This document shows, piece by piece, positions 1,164-27,555 of a stretch of 64,000 bases of DNA. Location of the stretch: assembly GCA_903831805.1 (NCBI GenBank), contig CAIKZD010000007.1:7886-71885 (forward strand), in the 5' to 3' direction. Under the pieces are notes generated by a model, which was not told where the DNA came from, searched no databases, and was given only the letters and a program-made list of their open reading frames with translations. Each line of letters starts with the position of its first letter. The stretch's first letter is position 1. The stretch comes from an uncultured bacterium. GTDB lineage: Bacteria; Patescibacteriota; Minisyncoccia; Moranbacterales; UBA2206. A program made the translations under genes and the position numbers.

Positions 1164-2258
1164 CTAAGTCTTTTTTAACGGTAATTTTTTTATGCGAAAA
1201 GAATAATAGTTAAGATCAACCGGATCAAGATATGACCTTATTATCCCAAAGTGTCTGATGTAAACCGATTTCCTGAGGCGCCATGTATCGGCATGGCGAA
1301 ACTGCCCGTAATAGGAATTAATGACGGCAAGAATTGTTTTGAGATAATTTTCAAAACTTTCCGGCGAATCAGGGATAGGGGATTCTCCAAATTGACTGAG
1401 TTTCTTCTTCAGATTGTTGACGATCCTTCGGCGAACAAGCGAATGACCGGGTTTGAGAATGAAACCGACAAAATTGATGCCTTTGGCGATAGGTTGCTGA
1501 ACAGACTTTTTAGGATGCAGTTTCAATTTCAATTCGCGTGCCAAAAATTGATCAATCTGTTTTTTCCAAACGGAAAGATATCTCGGGTTTTCATGGATCA
1601 ATATGAAATCGTCGACATAGCGCAGATAATATTTGACTTTCAAATCATGTTTGATGAATTGGTCGAGCGCATTGAGATAGATGTTGGCGAAAAATTGAGA
1701 AGTCAGATTGCCGATAGCAAGTCCTTGGTCTCGAGGTACTTTAAACAGAGACTTGTTTGATGGAATGAGCTTTGCAAGAGCCGGATTGCCTTTGCGATAG
1801 AAATTTTCCGTTGGATCGTGAAAAATGATTTTTTCTGTCAGCCACAAGATTTCCGGATTTTTTACCTGCTTTTTAATGAGAGCGAAGAGAATATCTTTTT
1901 TTAGCGACATAAAAAAAGCGGCGATATCGACTTGGAGGTAGTATGCCGGACGAGAGAAATTTTCAGTTGAGGTGCGCAGGATTTTTTTAAGATATTTTAT
2001 GGCATCATGAGTTCCTTTACATTTCCGGCAGGCGAAAGAATGGTAGATGAATTTTTTTTCGAAAATCGGTTGGAGATAATCAACCAGCAGGTGATGGACG
2101 ATTCTATCCCGAAAATCAGCCGCGAAAATTTCCCTCGGTTTAGGATTGGTAACGACAAAGCAAATGGATTGCCCAGGATGATAAGTGCGATTCTGCAGTT
2201 CTTTCTCCAATTTCAAAAGCTCATGTTCAAAATTTAGTTCCGTCTTGGCGGCGTTCAC
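1164..2258 (-). CDS. DGR reverse transcriptase
   Basis: RT motifs are present, including YLRYVDDF (YxDD). Motif 4 is IGNLTSQFFANIYLN, with the SQ that distinguishes DGR RTs from the QG of group II intron RTs. GTG start confirmed by reverse-complementing 2256..2258. Confidence 0.85.
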   Translation of the reverse strand: MNAAKTELNFEHELLKLEKELQNRTYHPGQSICFVVTNPKPREIFAADFRDRIVHHLLVDYLQPIFEKKFIYHSFACRKCKGTHDAIKYLKKILRTSTENFSRPAYYLQVDIAAFFMSLKKDILFALIKKQVKNPEILWLTEKIIFHDPTENFYRKGNPALAKLIPSNKSLFKVPRDQGLAIGNLTSQFFANIYLNALDQFIKHDLKVKYYLRYVDDFILIHENPRYLSVWKKQIDQFLARELKLKLHPKKSVQQPIAKGINFVGFILKPGHSLVRRRIVNNLKKKLSQFGESPIPDSPESFENYLKTILAVINSYYGQFRHADTWRLRKSVYIRHFGIIRSYLDPVDLNYYSFRIKKLPLKKT

Positions 2259-2328
2259 AGTTTTTCTTTTTTGTTTTCGGCAATCATGATAGGCGGCTAG
2301 GAGATTCTGAAATGTGAAATGAGTTTTG

Positions 2329-2360
2329 CTCTCTCTCTCTCTCTCTCTCTCTCTCTCTCT
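2329..2360. repeat. (CT)16 dinucleotide microsatellite
   Basis: Uninterrupted CT run in the divergent intergenic region between the RT1 start and the RAYT1 start. Confidence 0.9.
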
Positions 2361-2440
2361 AAAAAAACTATTTTTTTCTCTACCATTTTTGTTTTTCTAT
2401 GTTATTATAATAGCATAAGCTGTGCCATACTGTCTTCATT

Positions 2441-25333: not shown

Positions 25334-25716
25334 CCTTTTGTCTTTTTGAGCCAACCACCGATTTCTCTCCCGATGGAAACGATAGTTTCCAATTGGGAAG
25401 AATACCACCCAGTGGAAATGAATTTTTTGTCCACGGCCAGCCGCAGAGATTTTTTGAATAAATCAAAATTGGCGCTGGCCAGTGGCAGATAGATCTGGTT
25501 ATGAAGTGAAATCAGGGCAGCTTTATGCGTTTCGTTCAAAAAAAGCAAGATTTCTTTTCCCAAAAAATTTCTATCCATCTTGGGGAAATTTTGCACGCGA
25601 TCATAACAATTTCCGTATAATTTTTCTAATTCAGCAAATAATTTGGGCTGATTATTTTTATGAACGATATTCGTGGTAACGACTTCGCTGGGGGGGGGTC
25701 TTAGCGGGAATGCCAT
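25321..25716 (-). CDS. avd: Avd-like four-helix-bundle protein, paralog 2
   Basis: Same architecture as the 242..640 protein, including the C-terminal GREIGGWLKK versus QVGGWENWAK. It lies between TR2 and RT2. The start is probably an internal Met. Confidence 0.6.
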   Translation of the reverse strand: MAFPLRPPPSEVVTTNIVHKNNQPKLFAELEKLYGNCYDRVQNFPKMDRNFLGKEILLFLNETHKAALISLHNQIYLPLASANFDLFKKSLRLAVDKKFISTGWYSSQLETIVSIGREIGGWLKKTKGPKC

Positions 25717-26731
25717 TTGTCATAATGATATTTTTGAAAAAATTATTTCTTTAGAAAATTTGTTTTCAGCTTGGCAAGAATTTAGCAGGGGAAAGATGAA
25801 AAAGAAGGATGTCTTGGAATTTAAAATAAAATTGGAAGAAAATATTTTCCATCTCCATCAAACACTTAAAAACAAAACCTACCAGCATTCCCATTATACC
25901 GCATTTAACGTATATGACCCAAAACTGAGAAAAATTCATAAGGCCACGGTCATGGATAGAGTTTTGCATCATGCGATTTTTAGGATTTTATATCCACTTT
26001 TTGATCCAAGCTTTATTTGGGACTCCTATTCTTGCAGGATGGGAAAGGGTAGTCACCGAGCAGTCAAAAAATTGGAAAAATTCACAAGAAAAGCAAGTCA
26101 AAATAACAAAAGAAATATCTTTGCTTTGAAATGCGATATAAGAAAGTTTTTTGACTCTATTAACCAAGAAATTTTGCTGGAAATAATCCGAAGAAAAATA
26201 CAAGACAGAGATGCTTTATGGCTGATTGAAAAAATAATCCAAAGTTTCCCGGCAGGTTTGCCGCTGGGAAACGTCACCAGCCAAATTTTTGCCAACATCT
26301 ATTTGAATGAGCTGGATCAATTCGTGAAACATAATCTCAAAGAAAAATATTACCTGCGTTATTGCGATGATTTTATAATCTTGGGCGAAAGTGAAGAATG
26401 GCTGAAAAATATAATTCCAAAGATTGCTTGCTTCTTGCAGGAAAATCTACAGATCACGCTTCACCCGAATAAAATCAGTATCAGAAAATTCAGTCAAGGG
26501 ATAGATTTTTTGGGCTATGTGGTTTTGCCGCATCATAGAGTTTTGCGAACCAAGACCAAAAAAAGAATGATGAAAAAAATATCCCTGAAACAGAAAATGT
26601 ACCAGGAGGGTTTGGTTTCTGAGGAATCGCTCAATCAAAGCGTGCAATCGTATTTGGGAGTGCTGGAGCATTGTGAGGGGTGTGGGGTGGCGAGGGAGAT
26701 GGAAAGGACAATCGACAAGGCTAATGGATAA
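25673..26731 (+). CDS. DGR reverse transcriptase, paralog 2
   Basis: LGNVTSQIFANIYLNELD (SQ motif) and YYLRYCDDF (YxDD). ~55% identical to RT1 by eye. GTG start in the ORF track. A G9 homopolymer lies at 25689..25698. Confidence 0.85.
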   Translation: MVTTSLGGGLSGNAICHNDIFEKIISLENLFSAWQEFSRGKMKKKDVLEFKIKLEENIFHLHQTLKNKTYQHSHYTAFNVYDPKLRKIHKATVMDRVLHHAIFRILYPLFDPSFIWDSYSCRMGKGSHRAVKKLEKFTRKASQNNKRNIFALKCDIRKFFDSINQEILLEIIRRKIQDRDALWLIEKIIQSFPAGLPLGNVTSQIFANIYLNELDQFVKHNLKEKYYLRYCDDFIILGESEEWLKNIIPKIACFLQENLQITLHPNKISIRKFSQGIDFLGYVVLPHHRVLRTKTKKRMMKKISLKQKMYQEGLVSEESLNQSVQSYLGVLEHCEGCGVAREMERTIDKANG

Positions 26732-26880
26732 AATACGGCAGAGTCCTCTTTTTTCACTTCGCTGGCGCGCGTTCAAAAAGAGAGACTCCGCCAAGGGGAG
26801 TGCCGCGGCTCTGTAGGTATATTGCGTAAAAAATCATTGAGTGATAAGATAACAGTATTAAAAACAAAAAACTAAAATAG

Positions 26881-27555
26881 ATGCGGCAGGCCGAATTCGC
26901 TAATGGGGAATATTATCACATCTACAATCGTGGCGTGGATAAGCGCGAGGTGTTTTTGGATGAGGCGGATTATATTAGATTCTTGACCAGTATGCGTGAA
27001 TTCAATAGCATTTTAGATAGGGAAGAAAGACTAAGAAAATTGGAAAAGGAAAAATCGGAGTCCAACTCCGATTCGGAGTTGGACTCCGATTTTTCCGCCT
27101 CCACAGAACAAAAGTTGGTTGAAATTATTTGTTATTGCTTGAATCCGAATCATTACCATTTTATACTGAGGCAATTGCAGAAAAATGGCATCAGTAGATT
27201 TATGCAGAAAGTTGGAACTGGCTATACAAACTATTTTAATAAAAAACAAAATCGTTCCGGTGCACTCTTCCAAGGAAAATTCAAATCCATCCATATCGAC
27301 TCTAATGACTATCTGCTCTATCTGTCAGCCTACGTGAACGCTAATAATTTCATTCATGGATTTAATGAGAAGTTGGAAGATTGGGCATACTCAAGTTATC
27401 TGGACTATGCCGGACAGCGGGCAGGAAAGCTTTCCAAGAAAGAGGTTATATTGGGTCAATTTGATAATAATTTTTCGCAATATGCAAAATATATCAAAGA
27501 TAATGCGCTATACCTGAAGGAAAAAAAGGAAATGGCGAGCTATATTTTGGAATGA
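26881..27555 (+). CDS. REP-associated tyrosine transposase-like protein (IS200/IS605 Y1 HUH family), paralog 2
   Basis: YHIYNRG...YCLNPNHYHFIL...SGALFQGKFKSIHI...AYSSYLDY. ~70% identical to the 2441..3118 protein outside the variable loop. Confidence 0.65.
   Translation: MRQAEFANGEYYHIYNRGVDKREVFLDEADYIRFLTSMREFNSILDREERLRKLEKEKSESNSDSELDSDFSASTEQKLVEIICYCLNPNHYHFILRQLQKNGISRFMQKVGTGYTNYFNKKQNRSGALFQGKFKSIHIDSNDYLLYLSAYVNANNFIHGFNEKLEDWAYSSYLDYAGQRAGKLSKKEVILGQFDNNFSQYAKYIKDNALYLKEKKEMASYILE
27054..27090. repeat. Perfect 37-nt palindrome inside the RAYT2 CDS, related to family B
   Basis: ATCGGAGTCCAACTCCGA-t-TCGGAGTTGGACTCCGAT. It encodes the SESNSDSELDSDF segment, at the same protein position as the family-A palindrome in RAYT1. 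Confidence 0.8.

Follow-up and report, generated by a model that had tools for sequence, protein, structure and literature searches.

The 64,000-nt stretch of DNA analysed here (hereafter the window; GC content 43%) belongs to contig CAIKZD010000007.1 of an uncultured Moranbacterales bacterium and contains two complete diversity-generating retroelements (DGRs). Its proteins find their nearest matches in entries labelled Moranbacteria or Parcubacteria. Each of them comprises a reverse transcriptase (RT) gene, a bAvd gene and a pair of template and variable repeats (TR and VR), and each RT gene adjoins a gene encoding a Y1 HUH protein (HUH1 and HUH2). We conclude with good confidence that these two HUH genes are REPtron-like units, i.e. 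REP-associated tyrosine transposase (RAYT) genes accompanied by their own repetitive extragenic palindromes (REPs), and that they are optional insertions beside the DGRs rather than components of them. The genes and repeats concerned are the following, with their positions in the window and their strand:

1-219, + strand: 3′ end of the DGR1 target gene, with an Lcl_C domain (Pfam E=1e-11); it runs off the window start and its stop codon is at 217-219
88-235, + strand: VR1, a 148-nt repeat shared with TR1
242-640, + strand: avd1 (bAvd; PF22296 E=4e-16)
996-1143, + strand: TR1, repeat partner of VR1
1164-2258, - strand: RT1, called from GTG (RVT_1 E=2e-17)
2441-3118, + strand: HUH1, RAYT-like Y1 HUH protein of 225 aa (PF01797 35.7 bits; HUH motif H92/H94; probable catalytic Y152)
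23721-24908, + strand: DGR2 target gene, containing VR2 at 24797-24905
25224-25333, + strand: TR2, repeat partner of VR2
25321-25716, - strand: avd2 (bAvd-like; PF22296 E=2e-7, 31.9 bits, below the Pfam cut-off of 40)
25673-26731, + strand: RT2 (RVT_1 E=1e-20)
26881-27555, + strand: HUH2, RAYT-like Y1 HUH protein of 224 aa (PF01797 33.3 bits)

Both RTs match RVT_1 (Pfam) and contain the SQ motif (NLTSQFFANIYLN in RT1, NVTSQIFANIYLN in RT2). With an avd gene and a TR/VR pair showing adenine-specific mismatches at both loci, the two genes are DGR RTs, as a preliminary description of this DNA had proposed. All 13 mismatches between VR1 and TR1, and 16 of the 18 between VR2 and TR2, fall at TR adenines. 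DGR2 is located directly after the 23S and 5S rRNA genes. The arrangement of the HUH genes is also the one first described: HUH1 and RT1 are divergent, separated by a gap of 182 bp, and HUH2 lies 3′ of RT2 in tandem, with a gap of 149 bp. The identities had been overestimated. HUH1 and HUH2 share 60% identity (71% positives) instead of about 70%, and RT1 and RT2 share 35% identity instead of about 55%, a value that is in fact their percentage of positives. Over the 64 kb, tblastn recovered exactly two HUH copies and exactly two RT copies.

Two independent assemblies of the same population (L169 and L171) are identical to the window over 2.6-4.7 kb outside VR1. They differ from it at 16 and 15 positions, respectively, and all these differences (16/16 and 15/15) are located inside VR1, at 95-197. 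Variation confined to VR1 shows directly, at the level of the population, that DGR1 is active. At DGR2, a hairpin with an 11-bp stem was found at 24984-25010, about 80 nt 3′ of VR2, and may correspond to the VR-proximal hairpin/cruciform of other DGRs.

Protein family and cognate repeats of the HUH genes

Both HUH proteins score above the gathering score of PF01797 (Y1_Tnp), which is 23 bits. The motifs NPNHYHFIL and Y(A/S)SYLDY are present in both; the preliminary description had given them as NHYHFIL and YxSYLDY. In an alignment of 30 HUH sequences, H92, H94 and Y152 are invariant. Y152 belongs to an invariant AYVNxNN helix, where the Pfam Y1_Tnp match ends (model position 120/121). Compared with the Y---NP motif of class-2 RAYTs, YVNxNN keeps the Asn at +4 and has Asn in place of Pro at +5. 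Because it is invariant, lies at the end of the Y1_Tnp model and stands in a Y---NP-like motif, Y152 is the likely catalytic tyrosine, rather than that of the YxSYLDY motif pointed out at first.

The profile of the HUH alignment had no match at E<=0.01 among PDB sequences, so that the link with TnpA_REP required a predicted structure and a Foldseek search. For the AlphaFold model built on the 30-sequence alignment (predicted local distance difference test, pLDDT, 88), the best PDB match was 4ER8_A (E=9e-8), in which E. coli TnpA_REP is in complex with a REP hairpin. Next came the transposases of ISDra2 and IS608, and the matches to 4ER8, 2XMA and 2VJV span E values from 1e-7 to 1e-4. Homologues of the HUH proteins are numerous: over 2,500 were recovered, with a length of about 222 aa and 55-70% identity. 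All of them come from sources of the Candidate Phyla Radiation (CPR; Parcubacteria type), and several are named RayT by their source. Matches in species-representative genomes number at least 587. Some genomes harbour multiple copies (three copies in UBA11098, three loci in GW2011_GWC2_40_12, and two copies each in L035 and L050). HUH1 and HUH2 thus appear to be diverged paralogues in a large family of RAYT (TnpA_REP-like) Y1 HUH proteins of Parcubacteria/Moranbacteria, which we hold with the same good confidence as the explanation of which it is part.

We then considered the palindromes of the window, to which no strand is assigned:

686-724: doublet palindrome, REPIN-like and of the HUH1 type (core AAGGTTCAACCTT), located after avd1 and before TR1
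2625-2676: perfect 52-nt palindrome in frame inside HUH1, coding for residues 62-79 in a low-confidence loop
3130-3172: REPIN-like doublet, core GGGAGCTCAACTCCC, near the HUH2 type, 12 nt 3′ of the HUH1 stop
3595-3609: single hairpin GGGAGTTGAACTCCC, within the Beta_helix open reading frame (ORF)
4022-4066: REPIN-like doublet with the same core as 3130-3172 (GGGAGCTCAACTCCC), between the Beta_helix and Laminin_G_3 genes
18243-18283: 41-nt doublet palindrome of another type, GTAG...CTAC (GTAATCGTAGAGACGCCCCG / CGGGGCGTCTCTACGATTAC), after a TPR gene and before the 23S rRNA gene
23564-23613: REPIN-like doublet of the HUH1 type, core AAGGTCCGACCTT, between the 5S rRNA gene and the DGR2 target gene
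27048-27096: in-gene palindrome of HUH2, 49 nt, near-perfect and in frame (core CGGAGTCCAACTCCG); it falls in the protein loop that the HUH1 palindrome also occupies

In the two palindromes inside the HUH genes, each arm is a small hairpin by itself, and these palindromes are therefore doublets of inverted hairpins, similar to REPINs (REP doublets forming hairpins). Seven of the eight long palindromes of the window are within 686-27096, and six are found around the HUH genes, at 686-4066 and 23564-27096. No relative of the HUH hairpin cores was detected in the 28-64 kb part of the window, and no cognate gene was identified for the palindrome at 18243-18283. Within the window, only HUH1 has a palindrome abutting the gene (3130-3172), and the core of this palindrome is HUH2-like. 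The L171 contig ends inside HUH1, its positions 1-210 corresponding to 2441-2650 of the window, in the first arm of the 52-nt palindrome; such perfect palindromes therefore probably break assemblies.

The association between gene and repeats holds across the family. We surveyed 86 HUH genes for intragenic hairpins (hairpin score >=9). A hairpin was found at nt 140-270 in 67 of the 86 genes and at nt 420-560 in 22, i.e. at one site or the other in 71 genes and at both in 18, and only four hairpins were found elsewhere in these genes. By comparison, 1.4% and 1.6% of codon-shuffled control genes had a hairpin. The variable length of the loops ruled out an aligned covariation model, and codon shuffling and recurrence at the gene's own versus other loci were used instead. 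The sequence of the in-gene hairpin differs widely among homologues, its position being kept, and the residues that it encodes fall within the loop of lowest confidence in the AlphaFold model (about 51-80). Its 14-nt core recurs outside the gene at 73/Mb in the same locus versus 1.2/Mb in other loci. Repeat copies are found 1-9 kb away in several HUH loci, and seven are present in the window. Moreover, the density of palindromes within 200 bp of the HUH gene ends is 0.92 and 1.35/kb, versus 0.04-0.09/kb at 0.2-10 kb, long palindromes being 15-25 times denser near these ends than farther out. This combination of a RAYT gene and a repeat family cognate to it is the REPtron pattern.

Two observations concern the site of the in-gene hairpin. 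In distant homologues (e.g. L052, L066, L070, L077), the in-frame hairpin follows the Y-motif helix (nt 420-560) and does not precede the HUH strand. In the HUH gene of L161 (3500-4201), site 1 is occupied by a doublet, and a further hairpin, different in type, is present at site 2. The in-gene repeat is a candidate for a REPIN insertion tolerated in a surface loop and co-evolving with the other copies, or for autoregulation.

The Y1_Tnp domain and the hairpins found near gene ends throughout the family are also what would be expected of ordinary autonomous IS200/IS605 insertion sequences, recently transposed beside the RTs. This origin is extremely improbable, since the identity between the two copies is no more than 60% and the window shows no tnpB-like gene next to them. 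In addition, the proteins have about 225 aa and Y---NN instead of the Y---Q of IS200, their fold is nearer to TnpA_REP than to IS608 or ISDra2, and the family is strongly conserved, with 55-70% identity over thousands of metagenome proteins.

We return to REPtron-like units. In each, the HUH gene comes with short GC-containing hairpins, usually arranged as inverted doublets, and their core is also that of the in-frame hairpin within the gene. If it acts like the E. coli TnpA_REP, the HUH protein would bind its cognate hairpin in single-stranded DNA, cut it and rejoin it, and this cutting would spread or maintain the repeats.

HUH genes and DGRs in related genomes

The pairing of HUH and RT genes was then searched for in relatives, from both sides. 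On the HUH side, 79 loci from species-representative genomes were sampled (1.12 Mb). A DGR RT was present within 10 kb in only four of them, directly adjacent in one, and 75 had none within this distance. In the adjacent case (L033), an avd gene (-), an RT gene (+) and an HUH gene (+) follow one another; L005 has the order HUH, avd, RT; L036 has two RTs, at 4.7 and 7.7 kb from the HUH gene; and L068 has one RT, at 7 kb.

On the RT side, we sampled 80 RT2-like loci (0.68 Mb), centred on those metagenomic RTs that are most similar to RT2 (47-62% identity), and none of these loci has an HUH gene. At least 600 bp were available downstream of the RT in 62 of these 80 loci and upstream in 61. The closest homologue of HUH2 (73% identical), in L160, is found 3′ of a TPR gene, with no RT in the approximately 3.5 kb of upstream sequence on the contig; this contig ends just past the HUH gene, so that only the upstream side is covered. 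Among seven further loci with relatives of RT1 (62-74% identical), a single one (L161) has an HUH gene, and L162, L163, L164/L165, L166, L167 and L168 have none. L163, L164/L165 and L036 have their genes arranged as in DGR1 (Lcl_C target, avd, RT, Beta_helix, Laminin_G_3), and none of them has an HUH gene between the RT and Beta_helix genes. In L163, the Beta_helix gene starts about 45 bp after a (CT)n tract, and 17 of the 19 TR/VR mismatches fall at TR adenines. No long palindrome was found in L163, including at the site equivalent to 686-724. In the HUH-bearing L161, cognate palindromes number four: one follows avd, one separates TR from RT, one is within the HUH gene and one comes after that gene. 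L161 thereby has a palindrome at the place equivalent to 686-724 of the window.

These data bear on the idea, put forward in the preliminary description, of a conserved accessory function. A lineage-specific DGR accessory, in which the HUH nuclease would process or target DGR cDNA in these Moranbacteria, would agree with the action of HUH Y1 enzymes on single-stranded DNA hairpins (PDB 4ER8), with an adjacency that the window shows twice and that recurs in L033, L005 and L161, and with the activity of DGR1 in a population carrying HUH1. However, the closest RT relatives lack an HUH gene and keep adenine-specific VR diversification, and most HUH genes have no DGR nearby. In addition, the cognate hairpins of the HUH genes bear no relation to TR/VR and are gone from the syntenic cassettes without HUH, and the orientation and spacing relative to the RT vary from case to case. 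We consider such a role extremely unlikely. In a conserved form it is not supported, given the loci without the partner gene (0/80 RT2-like and 1/7 RT1-clade loci with HUH, 75/79 HUH loci without RT within 10 kb) and the mismatches of L163. DGR function thus appears, from the adenine-specific mismatches kept in this syntenic HUH-less locus, to be independent of HUH. An HUH nuclease as a novel part of the DGR was a tempting claim; it is unsupported and is now removed.

The same survey showed no enrichment of Y1_Tnp genes beside related RTs, and REP-flanked RAYTs were found in many unrelated contexts. Of the other reading offered at first, REP/RAYT elements inserting beside the RTs, the identity of the genes is borne out by the cognate palindromes and the 4ER8 fold. 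A preference for DGRs is possible, if doubtful: RAYT/REPIN units would insert preferentially in or beside DGR cassettes, and the HUH protein would stay out of mutagenic retrohoming. Such a bias could stem from cassettes that are dispensable, that have hairpins on their flanks or that leave single-stranded DNA exposed. Both HUH copies of the window are adjacent to an RT, and 3 of 81 HUH loci touch a DGR cassette (L033, L005, L161) where perhaps 0.5-1% would be expected, a value estimated by assuming 1-2 DGRs per genome and not measured. Moreover, an HUH gene fills the gap between the RT and Beta_helix genes both in the window and in L161, the two being only 60% identical and differing in hairpin type, and other selfish genes are present in related cassettes (L167, L168). 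On the other hand, HUH is absent from 80/80 RT2-like and 6/7 RT1-clade loci, and RTs within 2 kb of an HUH gene (2 in about 0.27 Mb) are not significantly more frequent than at 2-10 kb (3 in about 0.76 Mb). The numbers are also very small, and the window was chosen because of the pattern.

The small selfish or defence-type genes of the related cassettes are GIY-YIG and PDDEXK_3 genes between DGR parts in L167 (6521-7636) and an AAA_14/DUF4143 gene, likewise between DGR parts, in L168 (6967-8250); an AAA_14/DUF4143 gene is also present in the window, at 14140-15453. In these genomes, mobile genes seem to use DGR cassettes as landing pads.

On the explanation that we favour, HUH1 and HUH2 are REPtron-like units beside DGRs that they do not serve, inserted in some cases and absent in others, in accessory loci that tolerate insertions. 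DGRs do without an HUH gene and generally have none, and the palindromes of the cassettes arrived with the RAYT and are not DGR parts. Several points weigh against this explanation. For the identity of the family, the scores of the two proteins with the NCBIfam RAYT equivalog NF047646 (35.1 and 43.1 bits) are below its cut-off of 80. The repeat copies were counted within single loci and within the window. The GT[AG]G foot is not enriched (10 of 130 palindromes vs 17 of 130 shuffled ones), and the repeats of the HUH family are therefore atypical. The nuclease or transposition activity of the family is proposed by analogy with TnpA_REP. For the location, two HUH genes that are both adjacent to an RT would occur in about 0.5% of random placements (about 55 genes; a rough, post hoc figure). 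L033 and L005 are further pairings without detectable synteny to the window; for L033 versus DGR2, no flanking gene matches beyond avd, RT and HUH. Lastly, the window and L161 have at the same site HUH genes that are 60% identical, with different hairpin types, next to Avd and RT proteins that are 93% and 74% identical. The presence of different HUH paralogues despite these identities hints that the site beside RT1 is used repeatedly.

The preliminary description had argued that a pairing seen twice speaks against one chance insertion. The local pattern does look non-random, yet it is not upheld in related genomes. With two of two HUH genes beside an RT in the window, three of 81 loci touching a DGR and different HUH paralogues at the same site in the window and L161, a modest insertion bias toward DGR cassettes is possible. 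It is very unlikely that RAYT/REPIN units of Moranbacteria favour DGR cassettes and that, in addition, either their repeats, which in the window and L161 lie between avd, TR and RT, affect how the DGR is expressed or how TR-RNA is processed, or the HUH protein acts on DGR cDNA. If true, this would be a lineage-specific functional coupling of a single-stranded-DNA nuclease system with targeted hypermutation. The assignment of the palindromes of such cassettes to the adjoining RAYT matters for the annotation of DGR hairpins/cruciforms in CPR genomes.

The RT1 5′ end and the ribosomal RNA region

The 5′ end of RT1 carries a dinucleotide tract at 2329-2360, which is (CT)16 on the + strand and (AG)16 on the RT1 strand. 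A conserved N-terminal coding potential extends in frame upstream of the GTG, through the (AG)16 (2259-2400). The RT1 frame reads upstream ...FF(RE)8SKTHFTFQNLLAAYHDCRKQKRKT, followed by the called GTG start, and it has no start codon upstream of the AG repeat. The sole upstream ATG (MVEKKIVFL(ER)n) is in a different frame, and the loss of one AG unit would join the two frames. The tract is kept in relatives (L161, L162, L163, L167), with 11-22 units, and the gene calls of P0205 and P0208 place (RE)n in the RT frame. This arrangement suggests, at the level of sequence, slipped-strand phase variation of a DGR RT. The length of (AG)n does not vary among three independent assemblies of the same population, all of which have 16 units, and the activity of DGR1 in this population is also set against the idea.

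An Rfam scan of the window detected only the 23S and 5S rRNAs, and no tRNA gene was found. The 23S rRNA gene (18887-22994) spans 4.1 kb versus 2.9 kb for the model, and an ORF encoding a LAGLIDADG endonuclease is located within it, at 21342-21848. Given this excess length and this ORF, the gene probably carries an intron or insertion, which is common in CPR bacteria. Furthermore, AT-rich repeats at 7904-8035, 8648-8695 and 9066-9119 share sequence with 19497-19620, 20280-20327 and 20344-20397. They link the surroundings of an ORF of the 23S_rRNA_IVP family (8610-9056) with the interior of the 23S rRNA gene.

Comparison with known systems

Palindromic elements lying in frame within protein-coding genes are known in Rickettsia. 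As in the HUH family, such palindromes are tolerated in frame; in the HUH family, the host gene is that of the presumed cognate nuclease, and the insertion site is conserved in the family.

The system closest in fold is the REPtron of E. coli TnpA_REP (4ER8; Bertels and Rainey 2011, PMC3116915; Quentin et al. 2018, PMC6006769), with which the HUH family shares the Y1 HUH fold, 4ER8_A being the best match. Also shared are hairpin doublets at the gene ends, with a common core that recurs nearby, and the presence in one genome of several diverged paralogues, to each of which a distinct repeat type belongs. The HUH family differs from it by the lack of the GT[AG]G guide tetranucleotide, by YVNxNN instead of Y---NP, by a size of about 225 aa with a C-terminal helical extension, by scores below the NCBIfam RAYT cut-off and by its CPR hosts. 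Atypical REPs without the GT[AG]G foot are known for RAYT subclasses 2.6 and 3 (PMC6006769).

Our literature search for RAYTs in Patescibacteria/CPR returned irrelevant matches only and no description, and the search for DGRs with Y1_Tnp returned none. Roux et al. 2021 mention transposases only as a source of false-positive DGRs. Transposase genes of the IS200/IS605 family have been reported near the DGR variable proteins of Cyanobacteria, where they were taken for adjacent mobile elements rather than for components of the DGR (Vallota-Eastman et al. 2020, PMC7517822). These cases come from annotation and ISfinder within +/-10 kb of the variable proteins, whereas HUH1 and HUH2 are RAYT-like, have cognate REPINs and abut the RTs.

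What is new here is a CPR-wide RAYT-like family: a very large, well-conserved family with atypical repeats (no GTAG foot) exists in the reduced genomes of Parcubacteria. Its sole distinctive trait, an in-frame cognate repeat as a rule (71/86), has a published precedent. RAYT subclass 2.4 has REPs within tnpA_REP that keep its reading frame (Quentin et al. 2018, PMC6006769). The two families have in common in-gene cognate palindromes that leave the frame intact, their location in a peripheral loop, and doublet-like forms ('double foot'). They differ in the site, which in the HUH family is before the HuH strand (residues about 60-80) or, in distant members, after the Y-motif helix. They also differ in their hosts and repeats, subclass 2.4 being found in Cyanobacteria and Bacteroidetes and the HUH family in Parcubacteria, with repeats devoid of the GTAG foot. 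The in-frame repeat as a family rule thus extends a curiosity known from one other RAYT subclass.

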